Positions 1,894 to 48,852 are shown, counted from the stretch's first letter. The stretch: DNA of 52,923 bases from a virus (IMGVR_UViG_2877251553_000008); one strand, 5' to 3'. A program made the numbers and translations. The notes: generated by a model not told the origin, from the sequence alone.

Positions 1894-2117
1894 TTAACCC
1901 CTTGTAATTCATCGCCATAATTGATTTAATTCACAAATAAAACCATAACATGGTGAAATCAATGAAAAAAAACACAGATGATGGGGCTAAAATTTACACA
2001 CCACTTACCCTAAAGCTTTATGACTGGTGGGTTTTGGGAGTATCAAATCGGCTTGCATGGGGGGTGATGCTGCCAACTTACTGATTTAGTGTATGATGGT
2101 GTTTTTGAGGTGCTCCA

Positions 2118-2393
2118 GTGGCTTCTGTTTCTATCAGCTGTCCCTCCTGTTCAGCTACTGACGGGGTGGTGCGTAACGGCAAAAGCACTGCCGGACATCA
2201 GCGCTATCTCTGCTCTCACTGCCGTAAAACATGGCAACTGCAGTTCACTTACACCGCTTCTCAACCCGGTACGCACCAGAAAATTATTGATATGGCCATG
2301 AATGGCGTTGGATGCCGGGCAACTGCACGCATTATGGGCGTTAGCCTCAACACGATTTTACGTCACTTAAAAAACTCAGGCCGCAGTCGGTAA
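2118..2393 (+). CDS. insA: IS1 InsA
   Basis: 91-aa [46 protein letters not shown]... Confidence 0.95.
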
Positions 2394-2815
2394 CCTCGCG
2401 CATACAGCCGGGCAGTGACGTCATCGTCTGCGCGGAAATGGACGAACAGTGGGGATACGTCGGGGCTAAATCGCGCCAGCGCTGGCTGTTTTACGCGTAT
2501 GACAGGCTCCGGAAGACGGTTGTTGCGCACGTATTCGGTGAACGCACTATGGCGACGCTGGGGCGTCTTATGAGCTTGCTGTCACCCTTTGAAGTGGTGA
2601 TATGGATGACGGATGGCTGGCCACTGTATGAATCCCGCCTGAAGGGAAAGCTGCACGTAATCAGCAAGCGATATACGCAGCGAATTGAGCGGCATAACCT
2701 GAATCTGAGGCAGCACCTGGCACGGCTGGGACGGAAGTCGCTGTCGTTCTCAAAATCGGTGGAGCTGCATGACAAAGTCATCGGGCATTATCTGAACATA
2801 AAACACTATCAATAA
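2312..2815 (+). CDS. insB: IS1 InsB (made as InsAB' by -1 frameshift at A6C)
   Basis: C-terminal part ...[22 protein letters not shown]...HYLNIKHYQ; start coordinate approximate. Confidence 0.85.
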
Positions 2816-3261
2816 GTTGGAGTCATTACCTGCATGGGGATGTCCTACAAAGGAACACCTTCTTCCACACTTTCTGGAACATGTAGGTAACAACCATCTG
2901 GATATTGGTGTTGGAACTGGGTTTTACCTTACTCACGTACCTGAGAGTAGTCTGATATCTTTAATGGATTTGAACGAAGCTAGTCTGAACGCGGCATCTA
3001 CAAGGGCTGGGGAATCAAAAATTAAACATAAAATTAGCCATGATGTTTTTGAACCTTATCCCGCGGCGTTACATGGTCAATTTGATTCCATTTCCATGTT
3101 TTACCTTCTTCACTGCCTGCCTGGAAATATATCTACAAAAAGCTGTGTAATACGCAATGCGGCGCAGGCGTAAGCGTACAGCCTGAACCGTCTGGTCAGA
3201 ATCTGACGAATTAGACAAAGTGGTGTCCACCAAATAAGTAGTGGGAACCAAAGTGTCAGAT

Positions 3262-3641
3262 ATGCAGAAAAATGTGAATCCCGGCAGGCGAAAAGGCTGC
3301 CCTAATTATCCTCCCGAATTTAAACAGCAGCTCGTTGCTGCCTCCTGTGAACCCGGGATATCCATCTCAAAACTTGCTCTGAAAATGGCATTAACGCCAA
3401 TCTGTTGTTCAAATGGCGACAACAATGGCGCGAGGGAAAGCTGCTATTACCTTCTTCAGAGAGCCCCCAGCTACTTCCTGTGACTCTCGATGCAGCTGCC
3501 GAACAGCCAGAATCGCTCGCAGAGGATCCGGAAACCCTCAGTATCAGCTGTGAGGTAACGTTCCGGCACGGGACGCTCCGCTTCAATGGCAATGTCAGCG
3601 AAAAGCTCCTGACTCTGCTGATACAGGAACTGAAGCGATGA
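3262..3641 (+). pseudogene. IS66-family orfA (TnpA), frameshifted
   Basis: Two overlapping frames (3241..3483 and 3405..3641) together give ...PEFKQQLVAASCEPGISISKLAL / FKWRQQWREGKLLLP...; one base missing near 3380-3385. Confidence 0.7.
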
Positions 3642-3985
3642 TCCCGTTACCTTCCGGGACCAAAATTTGGCTGGTTGCCGGTATCACCGATATGAGAAAT
3701 GGCTTCAACGGCCTGGCGGCAAAGGTGCAGACGACGCTGAAAGACGCTCCGATGTCAGGTCACGTTTTTATCTTCCGTGGGCGTAATGGCAGTCAGGTAA
3801 AGCTCCTCTGGTCTACCGGCGATGGACTGTGTCTGCTGACCAAACGGCTGGAGCGCGGCCGCTTCGCCTGGCCGTCAGCCCGGGATGGCAAAGTGTTCCT
3901 CACACCGGCACAGCTGGCGATGCTCCTTGAAGGTATCGGCTGGCGGCAGCCTAAAAGACTGCTTACGTCCCTGACTATGTTGTAA
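3638..3985 (+). CDS. IS66-family orfB (TnpB)
   Basis: 115-aa ORF MIPLPSGTKIWLVAGITDMRNGFNGLAAKV..., start overlaps the orfA stop (ATGA). Confidence 0.8.
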   Translation: MIPLPSGTKIWLVAGITDMRNGFNGLAAKVQTTLKDAPMSGHVFIFRGRNGSQVKLLWSTGDGLCLLTKRLERGRFAWPSARDGKVFLTPAQLAMLLEGIGWRQPKRLLTSLTML

Positions 3986-4033
3986 GCCTCTTTATCCTGG
4001 TCGACGCTGAATGAGCCTGGTAATATACCCGGT

Positions 4034-5572
4034 ATGAGCAGCTCACTTCCTGACGATATCAATGCACTGAAACGTCTCCTTGCCGAACAGGAGGCGCTGA
4101 ACCGTGCCCTGCTGGAAAAGCTGAACGAGCGTGAACGCGAAATAGACCATCTGCAGGCACAGCTGGATAAGCTGCGCCGGACGAACTTCGGCAGCCGCTC
4201 CGAAAAAGTCTCCCGTCGTATCGCACAGATGGAAGCTGACCTGAAGGCACTTCAGAAAGAAAGTGATACCCTTACCGGTCGGGTTGACGACCCGGCCGTG
4301 CAGCGCCCGCTGCGTCAAACCCGCACCCGCAAACCGTTCCCCGAATCACTCCCCCGCGATGAAAAACGGCTGCTGCCGGCAGCGTCATGCTGCCCGGAAT
4401 GTGGAGGCTCACTGAGCTATCCGGGTGAGGATGCCGCCGAACAGCTGGAGTTGATGCGCAGCGTCTTCCGGGTTATCCGGACTGTACGTGAAAAGCATGC
4501 CTGTACTCAGTGCGATGCCATCGTGCAGGCCCCCGCGCCTTCACGGCCCATCGAGCGGGGTATCGCAGGACCGGGGCTGCTGGCCCGCGTGCTGATCTCA
4601 AAGTATGCAGAGCACACCCCGCTGTACCGCCAGTCTGAAATGTACGGCCGCCAGGGCGTGGAGCTGAGTCGTTCACTGCTGTCGGGCTGGGTGGATGCAT
4701 GCTGCCGGCTACTGTCACCGCTGGAAGAAGCGCTTCAGGACTATGTGCTGACTGACGGTAAGCTCCATGCTGATGACACGCCTGTCCCGGTGCTGTTGCC
4801 AGGCAATAAGAAAACGAAGACCGGGCGGTTATGGACCTACGTTCGTGACGACCGTAACGCCGGGTCAACGCTGGCGCCGGCGGTGTGGTTCGCTTACAGC
4901 CCGGACAGAAAAGGCATCCATCCGCAGACCCATCTTGCGGGGTTCAGTGGTGTACTGCAGGCGGATGCATACGCCGGGTTCAACGAGCTGTACCGGGATG
5001 GCCGGATAACGGAAGCCGCCTGTTGGGCTCACGCCCGCCGTAAAATCCACGATGTGCACGTTCGCACCCCGTCAGCCCTGACGGAGGAAGCGCTGAAACG
5101 GATCGGCGAACTGTACGCCATCGAGGCAGAGATAAGGGGAATGACGGCGGAGCAGCGCCTTGCCGAACGTCAGTTGAAAACGAAACCGCTGCTGAAATCC
5201 CTGGAAAGCTGGCTGCGTGAAAAGATGAAAACCCTGTCGCGACACTCAGAACTGGCGAAAGCGTTCGCATACGCCCTGAACCAGTGGCCGGCGCTGACGT
5301 ACTATGCAGATGATGGCTGGGCTGAGGCGGACAATAACATCGCTGAAAATGCGTTGCGGATGGTCAGTCTGGGCCGCAAAAACTACCTGTTCTTCGGTTC
5401 GGATCATGGAGGAGAGCGGGGAGCGCTGCTGTACAGCCTGATCGGGACGTGCAAACTGAACGGAGTGGAGCCAGAAAGCTACCTCCGCTATGTACTTGAC
5501 GTCATAGCCGACTGGCCGATAAACCGGGTCGGCGAACTGCTCCCCTGGCGCGTAGCACTGCCGACTGAATAA
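4034..5572 (+). CDS. IS66-family transposase (orfC)
   Basis: 512-aa ORF with N-terminal coiled-coil and zinc-finger Cys pairs (CCPECG...CTQC), typical of IS66 TnpC. Confidence 0.85.
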
Positions 5573-29895: not shown

Positions 29896-30090
29896 ATGTC
29901 AACGAAGAACAGAACCCGCAGAACAACAACCCGCAACATCCGCTTTCCTAACCAAATGATTGAACAAATTAACATCGCTCTTGAGCAAAAAGGGTCCGGG
30001 AATTTCTCAGCCTGGGTCATTGAAGCCTGCCGTCGGAGACTAACGTCAGAAAAGAGAGCATATACATCAATCCAAAGTGATGATGAATAA
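29896..30090 (+). CDS. YlcI-like small ribbon-helix-helix protein (DUF3950-type)
   Basis: 64-aa ORF with RHH-like pattern NIRFPNQMIEQINIALEQKGSGNFSAWVIEACRRRL; sits opposite the late genes between cos and the lysis cassette, as ylcI does in DLP12. Confidence 0.6.
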   Translation: MSTKNRTRRTTTRNIRFPNQMIEQINIALEQKGSGNFSAWVIEACRRRLTSEKRAYTSIQSDDE

Positions 30091-30283
30091 ACATCCCGGT
30101 TTCTTCCACCATCGCACCGGACAGGCGACTATGAGGGGACAACGCCGCGCTCCGTTAACGCGGTAAACCCCGGTGTGTATCGTTTTTGATTATCCCCGCA
30201 CACTCGCGCAGAGGAGTCTCCCTGTCGGGCTGCGGTCTCTGTTAATGAGGGAATACAGCGACGATACGGCGCATCAACAAAAC

Positions 30284-30750
30284 TTATTTCAGGCACTGAG
30301 TACGGATATATTCCTGCGCCCCTTCCAGTTGCTTCTGCATCGTCATCAGCCGCTCTCTGAGGGTGAAATAATCCCGTGTAACGGTGTCTGCCAGTCGGGG
30401 CCGGTTGCATTATCCACGCGGGCGGTGCCGGTGGCTTCACGCACGGGACCTGGACAGGTGGCGTTGATACGCAGGCGCTTACGACCAGCGGCAACGTCAG
30501 CGCGAAGAGTTTCATTTTCAGCTCTCGCATCGGCTAATTCCCTCGAGTATTTTGCATCGAGCGCAGCAACATCACGCTGACGCATCTGCATGTCAGTAAT
30601 TGCCGCGTTCGCCAGCTTCAGTTCTCTGACATTTTTGTCGCGCTGGGCTTTGTAGGTAATGGCGTTATCACGGTAATGATTCAGCCCCAGACTAAGCGCA
30701 CCACAGGCCACCAGCAGGGCAATGATGACCACGCACAGTACGCGGTTCAT
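30284..30750 (-). pseudogene. Rz: i-spanin Rz, frameshifted at 30397-30400
   Basis: [40 protein letters not shown]...VDNATGP then frame change; C-terminus [35 protein letters not shown] readable in the third frame. Confidence 0.8.
30346..30530 (-). pseudogene. Rz1: o-spanin Rz1, embedded in Rz in another frame, hit by the same frameshift
   Basis: N-terminus [22 protein letters not shown]...[15 protein letters not shown] in one frame; C-terminus [16 protein letters not shown] in the Rz frame; a single missing C in a C-run reconciles both genes. Confidence 0.7.
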
Positions 30751-30751
30751 T

Positions 30752-30850
30752 TCACCACCAGCGTATCTGACCGATGAAATAACCGGAGGCCATAATCACA
30801 AACACCAGCCAGATAAGAATGAACTTCCAGGTGGATAATTTTTCAGCCAT
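30752..30850 (-). CDS. candidate 32-aa single-pass membrane peptide between endolysin and Rz
   Basis: GGGAGA-N8-ATG start; [32 protein letters not shown]; stop TGA overlaps the Rz ATG (coupling); a longer 72-aa GTG-initiated version runs through a hairpin. Confidence 0.3.
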
Positions 30851-30925
30851 CACTCGAATCTCCCGAATCAGTTTGCTAAAATCAAACACACTTTCTCCTT
30901 TGACTTTTCCAGAGTCAGGAAACAC

Positions 30926-30958
30926 AAAACCCGCTTGCAGCCAACAAACGGGTTTTTT
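30926..30958. terminator. hairpin with T-rich flanks between R and Rz (possible bidirectional terminator)
   Basis: AAAACCCG-cttgcagccaacaaa-CGGGTTTTTT on the plus strand; the reverse complement is likewise followed by TTTTGTGTTT. Confidence 0.35.
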
Positions 30959-31047
30959 ACTTTTATTCACTTAGTTTTTGTCAGTTCGCAGGATTTCGTG
31001 TTATCCGTCCGTGTAAGCAAACCGCATTTTTCAGCAAAATATTCTGC

Positions 31048-31581
31048 TTATCTGTCGATACCCCAGCACGCCAGCGCGCTCTCCTGGTCACGACGGGATA
31101 CCTGACCGTAGCAGTTGTTTGAACGAATACGGCAGTCTCTGCCACCGTCCTTAATCCACCAGCGAATCGCCTCACACGCTCCCCTGCGATCACCTGCATT
31201 AATTCGTTTATAAAACGTCGACGGGAAACACTTACCGGGACCAATGTTGTACGGACAGAATGACGCGATCCCCGCTTTCTGGGGTTCGCTCAATGGCACT
31301 CTGATGTTTTTCTCCACCCATGCCAGCGCCTTATCACGCTCAATGGCGTTAACCCGGTCGCATTTTTCCTTCGACAACTTCATGCCCGGAACGACAGGTT
31401 TGCCATCCACCAGGATGGCACCGCGGCAGATGGTCCAGATACCCGCGCCATCACGGTATGCCGTGGTGTGGTTACCTTCCTTTTCATCCAGAAACTGGTC
31501 GAGAATGTCAGGCGCAGGCGCACCAGCGGCAATCAGCGCCAGAACGGCAGCCGACAGGCCGTATTTGATTTTGGTGTTCAT
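31048..31581 (-). CDS. R: SAR endolysin (phage lysozyme, GH24-type) R
   Basis: 177-aa ORF with N-terminal signal-anchor-release segment (YGLSAAVLALIAAGAPA) followed by a lysozyme domain (EGNHTTAYRDGAGIWTICRG...). Confidence 0.85.
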   Translation of the reverse strand: MNTKIKYGLSAAVLALIAAGAPAPDILDQFLDEKEGNHTTAYRDGAGIWTICRGAILVDGKPVVPGMKLSKEKCDRVNAIERDKALAWVEKNIRVPLSEPQKAGIASFCPYNIGPGKCFPSTFYKRINAGDRRGACEAIRWWIKDGGRDCRIRSNNCYGQVSRRDQESALACWGIDR

Positions 31582-31784
31582 GGATATATTAAATATTCAG
31601 CCGCTGTCCCTGGCCCACTAAATACGCACTTTAAGATAAGTCAGCCCCGGATGAAGCCAGTAAGCCGGCACTTTTTTAAAGGGTGGAGTATTAAAATCAC
31701 GAAGAAGAGCCTCCCGCACAATTGCATCCGGTAATGCTGCCAACTTACTGATTTAGTGTATGATGGTGATTTTAAGGTGCTTGC

Positions 31785-32060
31785 GTGGCTTCCATTTCCA
31801 TCAGATGTCCTTCCTGCTCCGCTACTGAAGGCGTGGTGCGTAACGGCAAAAGCACTGCCGGACATCAGCGCTATCTCTGCTCTCATTGCCGTAAAACATG
31901 GCAACTACAGTTCACTTACACCGCCTCTCAGCCCGGTACGCACCAGAAAATCATTGATATGGCCATGAATGGCGTCGGATGTCGCGCCAGTGCACGCATT
32001 ATGGGCGTTGGCCTCAACACGGTTTTACGTCACTTAAAAAACTCAGGCCGCAGTCGGTAA
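31785..32060 (+). CDS. insA: IS1 InsA
   Basis: 91-aa [43 protein letters not shown]... Confidence 0.95.
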
Positions 32061-32482
32061 CCTCGCGCATACAACCGGGCAGTGATGTGATTGTCTGCGC
32101 TGAAATGGACGAACAGTGGGGCTACGTCGGTGCTAAATCACGTCAGCGCTGGCTGTTTTACGCGTATGACAGGATACGGAGGACGGTTGTGGCGCACGTC
32201 TTCGGTGAACGCACTCTGGCCACACTGGAGCGTCTTCTGAGCCTGCTGTCGGCCTTTGAGGTCGTGGTATGGATGACGGATGGCTGGCCGCTGTATGAAT
32301 CACGCCTGAAGGGAAAGCTGCACGTTATCAGCAAGCGTTACACTCAGCGCATTGAGCGACATAATCTGAATCTGAGACAACATCTGGCAAGGCTGGGACG
32401 GAAGTCACTGTCGTTCTCAAAATCGGTGGAGCTGCATGACAAGGTCATCGGGCATTATCTGAACATAAAACACTATCAGTAA
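31979..32482 (+). CDS. insB: IS1 InsB
   Basis: 167-aa ORF ...[37 protein letters not shown]...HYLNIKHYQ. Confidence 0.9.
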
Positions 32483-33205
32483 GTTGGAGTCATTACCATT
32501 GCATCCTTATCAGCACCACTGGCCAGCGCTTCAATCTCAGCAGCTATCTGCAGATATCCCATGCAACGACCAATGCACTTCATCAGCCCCTGCTTTTTAT
32601 TGTTCTTCAGGTAATCAATGGCAAATTCAATGAGCGCCTCACTATGCTGGTGCGATGGCGGTGTTAATTTCCCATTTTCTGAGATGGTTATTTTCCCGCC
32701 ATCTCCGTATACAACAAAGGATGGCCGGTTACACTCCCATTCCTGATCTTTATCAGGTGCAGACGCAATAAAATAACGTTTATTTCCTTCCTCTCCGGCA
32801 CTTTTAACCGTAATGGAGTACTCAGACTGCAGACAAGACGCCTCTTTTTCTGACCGCAGTGTTGACGGCGGCATCTTCAGAGAACAAGTAATTATTCCCG
32901 GTAGTTTTCCTCTGTAGGTTATCAACACATCCTGCGCCTCTAAAATGATGGGGCGCTTTTCCTGCAACGGTTCGTTCCCTTCACATAACCCGGCAGCAAC
33001 ATCCATGAAAAACTGCTTCGCCTGCTTTTTCGCCTCCGCTTCGTAAAACTCCAGCTTGGCACCTTCAGTACGGTCAAGACTAATCGCCACATATGGCAAC
33101 AACAGTGACGGATACCCACCAATTTCCAGTGCCACAGTAACAGTAATCTTATCCGGGTAATTATTTATCCCTTTAACAACCAGTTCGTATTTTTTCTTCA
33201 TCACT

Positions 33206-33420
33206 TTACTCTCCCCGTACAGCCTTACGACGGTCCTCTCTGATTTTGAAATACAGGTTAGTCAGATATGTCAGCAGCCCAAACAGCAGACTCCCAGCAC
33301 GCCTATTGCCGCCCACTGAGACGGGGAAACCCTGTCCAGCAACTGCAGGAACCAGTAGCCCGTTCCCACCGCTGACGTGGTGTATGACACACCTGTTGTG
33401 ATTTTTTCCATCTGGTACAT
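33206..33420 (-). pseudogene. S: S21-like pinholin/antiholin with dual-start motif, frameshifted at 33293-33295
   Basis: [43 protein letters not shown] then frame change; remaining [28 protein letters not shown] readable in the adjacent frame; Met1 and Met4 give holin/antiholin starts. Confidence 0.8.
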
Positions 33421-33570
33421 ACCCCGTCTCCCGTTATCCGGAAGCTGACAACAATAAAAAAAGCCACCAGTTAAGTACTGATGGCTCTGATAACTCATGC
33501 AGGCATCTCAGACGACCCACTGACACTACCGGTGAGTTTAACGATACCTTCCATTTGACTGGCTCACTTT

Positions 33571-35465
33571 TTATGATGATGCCGGTGCATTTATCTCCAG
33601 CACCAGACTTTCTATCTCAACGCCATACGCTGCATTTTTGGTAATATCCGTCAGCGTCAGTGCATTTAGTCCCACTGCCAGACTGTCTTTTATGGCCTGG
33701 AATGCCGGGCCAGCCACTCCATTCAGTTTCGGAGTAACCGTGGCACTGCCGGCGGTGAACACCAGCTCCAGCGTCTGCCAGTCGTTACTGTAATTCCCGA
33801 ACTCGCCCAACTTTGTGTTTCCGGCTTTCTTGTGATGCATCAGATTCCGTTTGCCGTCTGTGGTCTGGGTGAAGAACGACATCAGGAACGGGTTACCAGT
33901 CCCGGTCATCGCCACGACGTCAGGTAACGCTACATCGGTATACAGATAAATTCCCAGACCGAACTGATTGTTGGTCAGTGCGCCTGACAGTCGAAACTTA
34001 CAGCTCAGTCTGCCACCCCGTGTCAGCAGGGAGACTGCGTCATCCACCGGGCGCGTCAGGGACCAGGCTTTATTGCTCTGCTTGGCGATCTTAAATACAC
34101 CACCCGACAACTGAATTCCGCCGTCCTTAATGGTCCAGCCCTGCGCAGCAGCCTCTCCGGCTGTCGGCAGCAGGGAGATTGTGCGAACGGACGTATCTGC
34201 AGACGGACCCGATGGCGTGTCGCCGCCGGGCGAGGGTTTGATTTCCGGTGCCTTACCACTGATGAAGGCTGAGGTGCGCCCGGCTGCGTTCAGAATAGCG
34301 GTTGCCATACGATCGGGAATAATGCCACGACGCGCCCATGAGCTGAAATTTGTCGGGCGATTTGATGATACCCAGTTTTTGTTCGTTCGGGATGCCGAAC
34401 CGTAATAACCAGACCCGACAATATCAGGATCTTCTGACGGGTTGTTTGTCGGTGTATTAACTCCGCTACCATCGGTCATAAAGGGAACAAAATAAATCTG
34501 CTGGGATTCTTTACCTTTATATGCACCATATACCACTTCATATTGCGTACCGTGTTCTTGTTTCCACGCGTATGTCGTGTCGCCACAAATCCAGGGGACT
34601 GTTGCCGGACTTCCACCGTGACACTGCGCCGCCAGCCCGGCAAGGTCAGCACGGAACTGCTGTACCATTGCAAGAAATGCTGCTGGCTGCTGGGCGTAAC
34701 TGGCATTCGTCATATCGAATTCCCCCTGCATCCAGCATATCGCCAGCAAAACGTTTTTCGGGTTTTTCTGCAATGCTGCCTTCGTGCGGAAAAGCAGATC
34801 CTGATATAACGGCTTACCCACTCCCCAGCGAGCCGAATCCTGACTGGCCCCCGTGGACTCGCTGAATGTCCCCTCCGTGCCCTGGGTGAATGCCGAACCA
34901 CCACGACAGCATGGTACCAGCAGGATCCCGCGTTATTAGGGATATACGGAAGCAGTTTTTTGGCAATATGTAAGCCCTGTCCGACACAGCCGTACTGCCC
35001 TTTGCTCAGGTCAGCCCGGGGATGGTTAATCGTACTCATATCCTGAACATCATGCAGACAATGGTCAGCAGGAATGATGTCGTTAAATACGCATACTTCA
35101 CCACCGGGAGTCACTGTGTTACGACGGGCCAGTTGCTTAATGCGCGGATGGGGCGCATCGTATGAATCCGGAAGCGGAAGCCCTTCACCGTAAGCCATGG
35201 CATTGGACTGCCCGGCCAGGGCAACAACAAATTAATACTCCGGGTTGCTGGTGGTGCTGATAACTGCGCCTTCTCCATCCGACGGCTTCACCACCACAGG
35301 TGTGGTGACATCACCTTCCGCCGCAATGGCCTGCATCAGGGTATAAGGCGTGATGGCCACCGGACTGCCAAATGGCTGCCACCCCTCCTTCAGTTTTTGT
35401 GTCAGTCGCTCCGCAAGGTCTGACGGCGACGCCGCCCTGACCACGTCATAGTGTTTAAATGCCAT
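33571..35465 (-). pseudogene. nanS-p: NanS-p-type sialate O-acetylesterase (DUF1737 plus SGNH esterase), two frameshifts
   Basis: Pieces MAFKHYDVVRAASPSDLAERLTQKLKEGWQPFGSPVAITPYTLMQAIAAEGD.. / ..NAMAYGEGLPLPDSYDAPHPRIKQLARRNT.. / ..MGKPLYQDLLFRTKAALQKNPKNVLLAICWMQGEFD...; typical position between stx/tRNAs and S in Stx phages. Confidence 0.75.
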
Positions 35466-35965: not shown

Positions 35966-36042
35966 TGGCGCGTTCTACTGTATTCGAACCAGTGACCGAT
36001 TGCTTAGAAGGCAATTGCTCTGTCCGGCTGAGCTAACAACGC
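35966..36042 (-). tRNA. argN: tRNA-Arg (anticodon UCU)
   Basis: Hand-folded cloverleaf: acceptor GCGTTGT, D-arm GCTC..GAGC, anticodon arm ATTGC-CTTCTAA-GCAAT, T-loop TTCGAAT, encoded CCA; one T-stem mismatch. Confidence 0.6.
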
Positions 36043-36058
36043 AGGATACAGATAATGA

Positions 36059-36132
36059 ACCGCCTTCGGGGACCCGAACTCCGCGCAACCAGCTTCGAAG
36101 GCTGGCGCTCTTTCCTGATGAGCTAATGGCGG
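36059..36132 (-). tRNA. tRNA-Arg-like (anticodon UCG by hand fold), possibly degenerate
   Basis: Acceptor CCGCCAT/AAGGCGG, D-arm GCTC..GAGC, anticodon arm CCAGC-CTTCGAA-GCTGG, T-loop TTCGGGT (G at position 58 is unusual), no encoded CCA. Confidence 0.4.
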
Positions 36133-36139
36133 TATGTGA

Positions 36140-36215
36140 TGGTGGCCCTTGCTGGATTTGAACCAGCGACCTGGCGATTATGAGTCGCTCGCTCTCACCA
36201 CTGAGCTAAAGGGCC
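36140..36215 (-). tRNA. ileZ: tRNA with CAU anticodon (Ile2 ileZ-type or Met)
   Basis: Perfect 7-bp acceptor stem GGCCCTT/AAGGGCC, D-arm, anticodon loop CTCATAA, T-arm GCTGG-TTCAAAT-CCAGC, encoded CCA. Confidence 0.75.
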
Positions 36216-37662: not shown

Positions 37663-38195
37663 GTCTTTTTCCCTTTTCCGGTTAACGTGACACACCAATA
37701 ACTCTTGTCGAAAAAGCCAGCAAGCTGAAAGACAGGTATTCACCGCCACCAGCGCGTTTACTGTACTGACGCGATTTCAGTCATAAAAAACCCGCCAGGC
37801 GGCAGGTTTAAGCTGTATGACGGAGTGACCAATCTTAACAGATTAAGATGGTTTTTGTTATAACACAAATCATTTCCTCGGTATCTTTATATCCCTTATG
37901 TTTCAATCGCCATAGATACCATCAATGAAAGTCGCTTAAAAAACTCTGTAGCAGCTTTGTCTAACGTTGAATAAGTTCTTAGCTCTCCACGCCCGGGACC
38001 AGTCACAACCCACGGACGTCTTTTAGGTGTTCTGGCTCCCTCCGAAATCACAACACCTGATAGACTGACATCAATTGTTATCTCCGTTCTTGTTTCATCC
38101 TCATTAGACTGGCCCCCTGAATCTCCAGACAACCAGTATCACTTAAATAAGTGATAGTCTTAATACTAGTTTTTAGACTAGTCATTGGAGTACAG

Positions 38196-38561
38196 ATGAT
38201 TGATGTCTTAGGGCCGGAGAAACGCAGACGGCGTACCACACAGGAAAAGATCGCAATTGTTCAGCAGAGCTTTGAACCGGGGATGACGGTCTCCCTCGTT
38301 GCCCGGCAACATGGTGTAGCAGCCAGCCAGTTATTTCTCTGGCGTAAGCAATACCAGGAAGGAAGTCTTACTGCTGTGGCCGCCGGAGAACAGGTTGTTC
38401 CTGCCTCTGAACTTGCTGCCGCCATGAAGCAGATTAAAGAACTCCAGCGCCTGCTCGGCAAGAAAACGATGGAAAATGAACTCCTCAAAGAAGCCGTTGA
38501 ATATGGACGGGCAAAAAAGTGGATAGCGCACGCGCCCTTATTGCCCGGGGATGGGGAGTAA
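38196..38561 (+). CDS. insC: IS2 InsC (orfA)
   Basis: [56 protein letters not shown]... Confidence 0.95.
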
Positions 38562-39424
38562 GCTTAGTCAGCCGTTGTCTCCGGGTGTCGCGTGCGCAGT
38601 TGCACGTCATTCTCAGACGAACCGATGACTGGATGGATGGCCGCCGCAGTCGTCACACTGATGATACGGATGTGCTTCTCCGTATACACCATGTTATCGG
38701 AGAGCTGCCCACGTATGGTTATCGTCGGGTATGGGCGCTGCTTCGCAGACAGGCAGAACTTGATGGTATGCCTGCGATCAATGCCAAACGTGTTTACCGG
38801 ATCATGCGCCAGAATGCGCTGTTGCTTGAGCGAAAACCTGCTGTACCACCATCGAAACGGGCACATACAGGCAGAGTGGCCGTGAAAGAAAGCAATCAGC
38901 GATGGTGCTCTGACGGGTTCGAGTTCTGCTGTGATAACGGAGAGAGACTGCGTGTCACGTTCGCGCTGGACTGCTGTGATCGTGAGGCACTGCACTGGGC
39001 GGTGACTACCGGCGGCTTCAACAGTGAAACAGTACAGGACGTCATGCTGGGAGCGGTGGAACGCCGCTTCGGCAACGATCTTCCGTCGTCTCCAGTGGAG
39101 TGGCTGACGGATAATGGTTCATGCTACCGGGCTAATGAAACACGCCAGTTCGCCCGGATGTTGGGACTTGAACCGAAGAACACGGCGGTGCGGAGTCCGG
39201 AGAGTAACGGAATAGCAGAGAGCTTCGTGAAAACGATAAAGCGTGACTACATCAGTATCATGCCCAAACCAGACGGGTTAACGGCAGCAAAGAACCTTGC
39301 AGAGGCGTTCGAGCATTATAACGAATGGCATCCGCATAGTGCGCTGGGTTATCGCTCGCCACGGGAATATCTGCGGCAGCGGGCTTGTAATGGGTTAAGT
39401 GATAACAGATGTCTGGAAATATAG
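38519..39424 (+). CDS. insD: IS2 InsD (orfB transposase)
   Basis: 301-aa [33 protein letters not shown]...[23 protein letters not shown]... Confidence 0.95.

Positions 39425-47683: not shown

Positions 47684-48852
<1,169 letters not shown>

Follow-up and report, generated by a model that had tools for sequence, protein, structure and literature searches.

The open reading frame (ORF) between the holin gene S and the endolysin gene R of this prophage belongs to the YdfR/DUF1327 family, and an IS1 element has split it. In all likelihood the ORF is the long form of this family, a common and dispensable accessory gene of Escherichia/Shigella lambdoid (Stx-phage-like) prophages. The gene is ordinary rather than new: the allele and its family are both already named in public databases. 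We analyzed a window of 52,923 nucleotides (IMGVR_UViG_2877251553_000008), and coordinates given without a locus name refer to this window.

An IS1 insertion splits a gene in the lysis cassette

The lysis region of the window contains the features listed below. S and R were assigned from sequence, reading frames and Pfam. IS1 was assigned from its sequence, the RefSeq label 'IS1-like element' on matching records and a Pfam match to PF03400 (DDE_Tnp_IS1).

33206..33420, minus strand: class II (S21-type, PF04971) holin gene S
32498..33201, minus strand: YdfR-family gene, 5' part, codons 1-234 and 2 nt of codon 235
32498..32506: target-site duplication, copy 1, GGATGCAAT (minus-strand reading)
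31730..32497, plus strand: IS1, 768 bp
31785..32060, plus strand: insA, IS1 reading frame, 91 aa
31979..32482, plus strand: insB, IS1 reading frame, 167 aa
31721..31729: target-site duplication, copy 2, GGATGCAAT
31618..31720, minus strand: YdfR-family gene, 3' part, last nt of codon 235 to codon 268 and TAG stop
31048..31581, minus strand: endolysin gene R, PF00959 lysozyme, 177 aa

The YdfR-family ORF starts at ATG 33201 on the minus strand, 4 nt past the holin TAA (33208..33206), with GGGGAGAG immediately 5' of the start codon. An alternative in-frame GTG is present at 33204; homologues begin at the ATG instead. The ORF stops with TAG at 31620..31618, which leaves 36 nt to the endolysin ATG at 31581, the distance given in the initial annotation. 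The N-terminus of R is Ala/Gly-rich and weakly hydrophobic (SAR-like), and the spacing of its E35/D44/T50 triad, as read from the sequence, is that of phage 21 R. These features are consistent with R being a SAR-type endolysin. Co-oriented and closely spaced with both neighbors, and with homologues down to 24-34% identity, the ORF is a coding gene wedged between an S21-type holin gene and a putative SAR-type endolysin gene, as was first proposed.

The insertion is also as clean as it had first appeared. The element is 768 bp long, has the ends GGTAATGACTCCAACTTACTGAT / ATCAGTAAGTTGGCAGCATTACC (the outer ends read GGTAATGACTCC... and ...GGCAGCATTACC), contains the insA and insB frames, and has the perfect 9-bp direct repeat GGATGCAAT on both sides. 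Because insA and insB are on the plus strand, IS1 transcription opposes the lysis genes. Q-modified RNA polymerase reads through terminators, so polarity of IS1 on R cannot be assumed and we make no claim that R is silenced.

Excising IS1 and one copy of the duplication restores the pre-insertion gene (33201..32498 joined to 31720..31618; 807 nt, 268 aa). The restored protein aligns without gaps to intact 268-aa alleles. The initial annotation had given 272 codons because both duplication copies were kept; the join it proposed (33201..32498 and 31729..31618) yields 271 aa and a stop.

The 5' part of the gene encodes the DUF1327 domain (aa 1-100), a linker of low predicted confidence and most of a C-terminal module (C-module). 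Of the 15 invariant C-module residues, seven (P248, K250, W256, P259, G260, Y263 and L264) are encoded in the 3' part. Insertion at codon 235 removed the last 34 residues. The IS1 allele reads on into the element and ends at 32476, which gives a 241-aa product with an IS1-derived tail and without those seven residues. The loss leaves the C-module dead. The DUF1327 domain, which occurs naturally as a free-standing unit, is spared and still encoded intact.

The gene belongs to a named but under-annotated family

We compared the restored protein to protein family databases. It matched Pfam DUF1327 (PF07041) over aa 1-100 (E 7.6e-43; 145.1 bits, gathering cut-off 25; profile positions 1-88 of 93), and over its full length it matched phrog_1085 (PHROG 1085) with E 5.9e-159. 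All 15 invariant C-module residues of PHROG 1085 are present. The order S (PF04971), YdfR-family gene, R (PF00959) is found in the window and in its relatives, and in many E. coli prophages RefSeq labels the gene at this S-R position 'YdfR family protein'. The IS1 allele is itself already in RefSeq (WP_000731248.1, 'MULTISPECIES: YdfR family protein [Shigella]', 241 aa), and UniRef places the truncated product under Shigella dysenteriae. Pfam, PHROG and RefSeq thus all name a gene in which no motif had been recognized at first. An NCBIfam scan of the restored protein gave no match, and a scan with the PADLOC-DB v2 defence HMMs gave no family at E up to 1.

The absence of a transmembrane segment, noted at the outset, was borne out by a 19-residue Kyte-Doolittle analysis of the restored protein. 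Its highest mean is 1.29, compared with 1.70 for S and 1.74 for the N-terminus of R, and the stretch in question is a beta-strand in the AlphaFold2 model. The protein therefore lacks the membrane segment of a holin or membrane antiholin.

RefSeq treats the long form unevenly and often labels no more of it than the DUF1327 part. In the O104:H4 strain FDAARGOS_401 (L001 4401..5207), it covers only the first 336 nt, as an 'incomplete' pseudogene, and the 268-codon ORF is intact. In many genomes, the C-module region has no RefSeq annotation. The long form is systematically under-annotated in RefSeq. Since all 268 codons of the O104:H4 ORF are open, the 'pseudo' flag on intact long alleles is an artefact of annotation.

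The long form combines two modules

An alignment of homologues revealed a mosaic made of an N-terminal DUF1327 module, a variable middle and the C-module. The DUF1327 module covers approximately aa 1-76 and is followed by the conserved stretch 'EKRPIILEAQDVLITY.GKLPG.IT'. Longer alleles (287-333 aa) have a coiled coil and extra segments in the variable middle, and relative to them the 268-aa form seems to have lost an internal segment between short SEK(E/D) repeats. The invariant C-module residues are H186, I195, G211, R212, L217, Q218, A220 and A221 in addition to the seven named above. Each module is also found alone at the same slot. DUF1327-only proteins (~114 aa) are encoded by many Stx1, Stx2a and Stx2c phages, and C-module-only proteins (185-213 aa) are encoded by Stx2a phages.

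The AlphaFold2 model of the restored 268-aa protein (pLDDT 60) has two confident domains and a linker (aa 70-156) below pLDDT 50. The DUF1327 module is modeled as three strands and a long helix. The C-module, which comprises ~110 aa (aa 157-268), is modeled as a small sheet with four helices, and a C-module-only homologue was modeled at pLDDT 77. Foldseek searches of both models against the PDB, and of the 268-aa model also against BFVD, returned nothing at E <= 1e-3; the best-scoring structures were generic NTF2/cystatin-like sheets or helical repeats, none above TM 0.25. Searching PDB sequences with the single protein and with the family profile produced insignificant coiled-coil-like matches only. 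The C-module has no family in Pfam, and no structural relative was found in PDB/BFVD by HMMER or Foldseek.

The family is common in E. coli and narrow elsewhere

Part of the gene is carried by 2936 of 5426 complete E. coli genomes (megablast). At least 80% of the gene is present in 553 of these 5426 genomes and its C-terminal 348 nt in 777. By the initial annotation's own account, a match to a common prophage protein would refute its reading, and these numbers and the existing family name amount to such a match. The IS1 allele, with its 241-aa product, is fixed in at least 9 complete Shigella genomes.

The family is narrow: of 1.84 billion cluster representatives scanned in full with HMMER, no more than 71 matched at E <= 1e-3. 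Among species-representative genomes, a strict pattern that may miss distant relatives identified 3 loci, all from Escherichia or Shigella. The C-module is confined to Escherichia/Shigella-type lambdoid phages. S and R lie on either side of the gene in 77 of 80 IMG/VR C-module relatives, of which ~35 have the N-domain and 41 do not.

More distant homologues (P0147, P0148, P0151, P0160 and P0165; 24-34% identity) retain the N-terminal plus C-terminal layout, and one of them has a weak DUF1327 match (E 0.0044). This layout and the 15 invariant residues rule out a fusion of unrelated frames, which the initial annotation had listed as a finding that would refute it. P0148, P0151, P0160 and P0165 belong to lambdoid prophages, where their genes come after that for the Q antiterminator but upstream of S, and three of the four adjoin a different holin family, PF16080. 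These positions indicate that the conserved feature is a promoter-proximal place in the late operon near the lysis genes. Neither the S-R junction as such nor a particular holin type is conserved. The initial interpretation of a real cargo gene in the lysis cassette stands; its description as an unrecognized gene does not, since the family is named and widespread.

At two distant loci, the family member shares its first 4 nt with a DUF4406 (nucleoside 2-deoxyribosyltransferase-like) gene (L013 4639..5004 and L011 1089..1487). The overlap suggests translational coupling of the two genes at these loci.

A second gene recurs next to the C-module. In five contexts (phage 86 gp06, Stx2_12E129, L011, L015 and L017), a convergent gene of ~105 aa with the motif ELSYLDC.WD (phrog_1853) directly follows the C-module gene. 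Genes of this type have the following positions.

L002 4809..5123, minus strand: phrog_1853-type gene
L009 3456..3770, minus strand: phrog_1853-type gene
L015 6807..7124, minus strand: phrog_1853-type gene
L017 585..902, minus strand: phrog_1853-type gene
L011 2378..2713, minus strand: phrog_1853-type gene

The phrog_1853 gene has no Pfam family and occurs with close relatives and with relatives of 24-34% identity alike. It is absent from the window. Its counts are 90 of 5426 E. coli genomes, compared with 777 for the C-module, and 1 of 80 IMG/VR loci. We rejected an obligatory partnership as a general rule given this absence and rarity. The phrog_1853 gene may be an optional partner.

The gene resides in a decaying, stx-less prophage

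The element is a decaying Stx-phage-like lambdoid prophage of Shigella. Its gene order begins with replication genes, DUF968 and Q, followed by an IS3-family element, a DNA methylase gene, three tRNA genes, DUF1737 and an SASA esterase gene (nanS-p type). S, the YdfR-family gene, R and Rz come next, and then terminase, head and tail genes. The three tRNA genes occupy the position where Stx phages have stxAB. No stx gene is present in the window, and we therefore call the prophage stx-less. Additional features are as follows.

35966..36215, minus strand: tRNA genes Arg-TCT, Arg-TCG and CAT-anticodon, between the methylase and DUF1737/SASA esterase genes
38151..39424: IS3-family element (HTH_Tnp_1 + rve), within ~25 nt of the end of the Q antiterminator gene
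2063..2830: second IS1 copy, 91% identical to the IS1 at 31730..32497
~2438..5572: IS66-family element
47684..48523: further rve transposase gene
33488..33460, minus strand: terminator-like hairpin, 12 pairs then a T-run, between the SASA esterase gene and the holin start

The IS3-family element sits roughly at the expected late promoter region and is a further sign of prophage decay. The two IS1 copies are just 91% identical and thus represent two isoforms. We scanned 30000..34000 for promoters and terminators and obtained chance-level counts, with nothing inside the YdfR-family gene. Promoter consensus matches numbered 5, compared with 4.0 expected by chance. The hairpin at 33488..33460 is the sole strong hairpin in this interval; it lies upstream of S and is presumably read through by Q-modified polymerase.

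The holin gene of the window (L008) is 1 nt short, with GGGG reduced to GGG at ~33296, and encodes 49 aa instead of 71. S is intact at 71 aa in five sister genomes (L003-L007). In a 20.7-kb comparison, the window and CP026825.1 were 100% identical. Over 20.7 kb, all 12 indels that separate the window from the sister L003 are single-base losses in G/C homopolymers, at the following positions.

~33296, 41979, 39736, 37585, 35852, 35840, 34930, 30933, 30401, 27591, 25021 and 22622: homopolymer indels in the window relative to L003

The genes broken by these indels are S, Q, Rz, the SASA esterase gene (nanS-p), terminase and capsid genes. Such a pattern is typical of unpolished long-read assemblies. 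Because all 12 indels are of this kind and five sisters are intact, the holin deletion is most likely an assembly error. We rejected a biological holin frameshift, as this assembly differs from its sisters by G/C homopolymer deletions only. The frameshifts in the Q, Rz, nanS-p, terminase and capsid genes are probably long-read assembly errors as well.

Candidate roles for the YdfR-family protein

Our literature search for ydfR and DUF1327 found functional data in one paper (PMC13232886). K-12 Qin YdfR (103 aa, DUF1327) was picked up there in a two-hybrid screen. YdfR residues 1-72 were enough for two-hybrid interaction with RNase G and RNase E, including RNase E 1-597, the catalytic N-terminal half, with which full-length YdfR interacted as well (PMC13232886). 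Strep-YdfR co-purified FLAG-tagged RNase E 1-598 along with DNase-resistant nucleic acid, although the authors noted that a contaminant could explain the RNA, and YdfR overexpression altered few transcripts (PMC13232886). Aligned over 89 residues, the N-domain of the window protein and a 103-aa YdfR-type representative are 43% identical.

The likeliest role for the window gene is that of a dispensable cytoplasmic accessory protein of the late operon, not a core lysis component. Dispensability is indicated by the many S-R cassettes with one module or none and by the IS1 allele, which is fixed in at least 9 Shigella genomes. The gene's location, immediately downstream of the class II holin gene and ahead of the SAR endolysin gene in what would be a Q-dependent late operon, points to late co-expression with S and R. 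The protein is predicted to be soluble and cytoplasmic. Its DUF1327 domain may bind RNA, the catalytic N-terminal half of host RNase E, or both, in the way reported for K-12 Qin YdfR. In that case the protein would adjust the turnover of RNA late in infection, and the C-module could contribute a second interaction partner.

We advance this RNase E/RNA mechanism tentatively, by analogy to YdfR. The RNase E link comes from a single study, and the homologue examined in it is 43% identical; few transcripts responded to overexpression of this homologue, and the RNA that co-purified with it may have come from a contaminant. The mechanism also leaves the C-module, the most conserved part of the protein, unaccounted for. 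In addition, dN/dS relative to intact alleles is 0.3-0.5 on few substitutions, which indicates mild constraint only. Finally, the tight, invariant S-R placement in Escherichia phages also fits a lysis-related role.

Such a role could be that of a soluble regulator of lysis timing (an antiholin, holin antagonist or SAR-endolysin modulator) made from the lysis transcript. It would act on the cytoplasmic tail of the pinholin or on the endolysin before export, following the logic of P1 LydB or T4 RIII. The spacing at the junction (4 nt from the holin stop, 36 nt to R) and the S-R position of 77 of 80 close IMG/VR relatives speak for this model, and distant relatives are likewise within ~1-2 kb of holin and lysozyme genes. 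A genetic screen flagged ydfR for envelope integrity, as cited in PMC13232886. Several features of the family nonetheless make a timing regulator unlikely. The protein has no transmembrane segment and no similarity to LydB (hhalign probability 0.06%). Its slot holds the N-domain alone, the C-module alone or both, interchangeably, which sits poorly with a single specific partner. In distant relatives, the gene is upstream of the holin gene, beside the other holin family PF16080. To our knowledge, a YdfR-family gene is absent from many cassettes of the class II holin/SAR endolysin type, of which phage 21 is the prototype. Module interchange, distant positions, the second holin family and the lack of LydB similarity argue against a core or holin-specific lysis role.

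The extreme mosaicism of the locus, with its shuffled domains, is reminiscent of a lysogenic-conversion or defence 'moron', i.e. a superinfection exclusion or anti-phage module, possibly with the convergent phrog_1853 gene as partner. The gene lies in the region from Q to the lysis genes, which in Stx phages holds cargo (stx and nanS-p, for example), and phage 86, Stx2_12E129 and three distant loci share the conserved convergent gene directly behind that for the C-module. However, PADLOC gave no match, and the partner is missing from the window, from all but 90 of 5426 E. coli genomes and from all but 1 of 80 IMG/VR loci. The gene lies on the late-operon strand, and promoter matches do not rise above chance (5 vs 4.0), so expression in the lysogen is not indicated. 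We consider a moron improbable. We give still less credence to the idea that the C-module is the active part of an undescribed late-region system that ancestrally included phrog_1853 (for example, as an exclusion or lysis-checkpoint pair), with DUF1327 as a tether to the membrane-bound RNase E degradosome.

We dismiss a non-functional chance ORF or fusion of unrelated remnants as extremely unlikely: the weakly predicted middle (aa 70-156 below pLDDT 50), its resemblance to an internal deletion between SEK(E/D) repeats and the RefSeq pseudogene marks on some intact long alleles are outweighed by a two-module layout and 15 invariant residues held at 24-34% identity, an intact ORF in hundreds of genomes, two confidently predicted domains and the artefactual nature of the pseudo flag on the open 268-codon O104:H4 ORF.

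For the window itself the locus is of little importance: the Shigella prophage is decaying, and the gene is yet another accessory gene lost to an IS element. Of more general, if modest, significance is that the lysis cassette of Stx-type phages houses a family that over half of all complete E. coli genomes carry in some form. With the 2026 RNase E data for YdfR, an RNase E role becomes a concrete hypothesis that can be tested in inducible Stx phages. The C-module, which has no Pfam model or structural relative, and the RefSeq under-annotation of the long form are also worth keeping in view.

Comparison with known systems

We compared the window gene to the closest known systems. P1 LydB, a soluble antagonist of the LydA holin, likewise has no transmembrane segment and is encoded directly downstream of a holin gene. 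The likeness appears to be one of logic alone; we rejected LydB as a relative because hhalign detected no sequence or profile similarity to the restored protein (probability 0.06%, E 0.79).

K-12 Qin YdfR (103 aa, DUF1327, P76160) shares the homologous N-terminal domain with the window protein. Unlike the window protein, it consists of the N-domain and a short helical tail and has no C-module. On the K-12 map, ydfR likewise adjoins a class II holin gene (essQ) and a prophage lysozyme gene. RNase E binding and RNA co-purification were reported for K-12 YdfR (PMC13232886).

The C-module-only proteins (185-213 aa; e.g. Stx2_12E129 BCI98956.1) occupy the same S-R slot as the window gene. Their C-terminal ~115 residues are 83-97% identical to those of the window protein, and the two share the motifs GRCMGYLQ-AAEIE, (D/N)xPPFK and PGxxYLK. 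They differ in having a coiled-coil segment at the start in place of the DUF1327 domain.

The closest relatives are gp05 of the Stx2-converting phage 86 (YP_794052.1, 'YdfR family protein'; 268 aa, 91% protein identity) and the O104:H4 prophage ORF (L001 4401..5207; 268 aa, ~96% DNA identity across the region). Both have the same arrangement as the window gene at the S-R junction, with a start 4 nt after a class II holin gene and a lysozyme gene downstream. In the O104:H4 prophage, as in the window, a short spacer leads to R with no intervening gene. Phage 86 has an extra 447 bp before R that contains the convergent 105-aa gp06 (phrog_1853) and is absent from the window. The initial annotation had suggested looking for an intact copy at the junction in related prophages, and phage 86 and the O104:H4 prophage each provide one, whereas the copy in the window is split by IS1.
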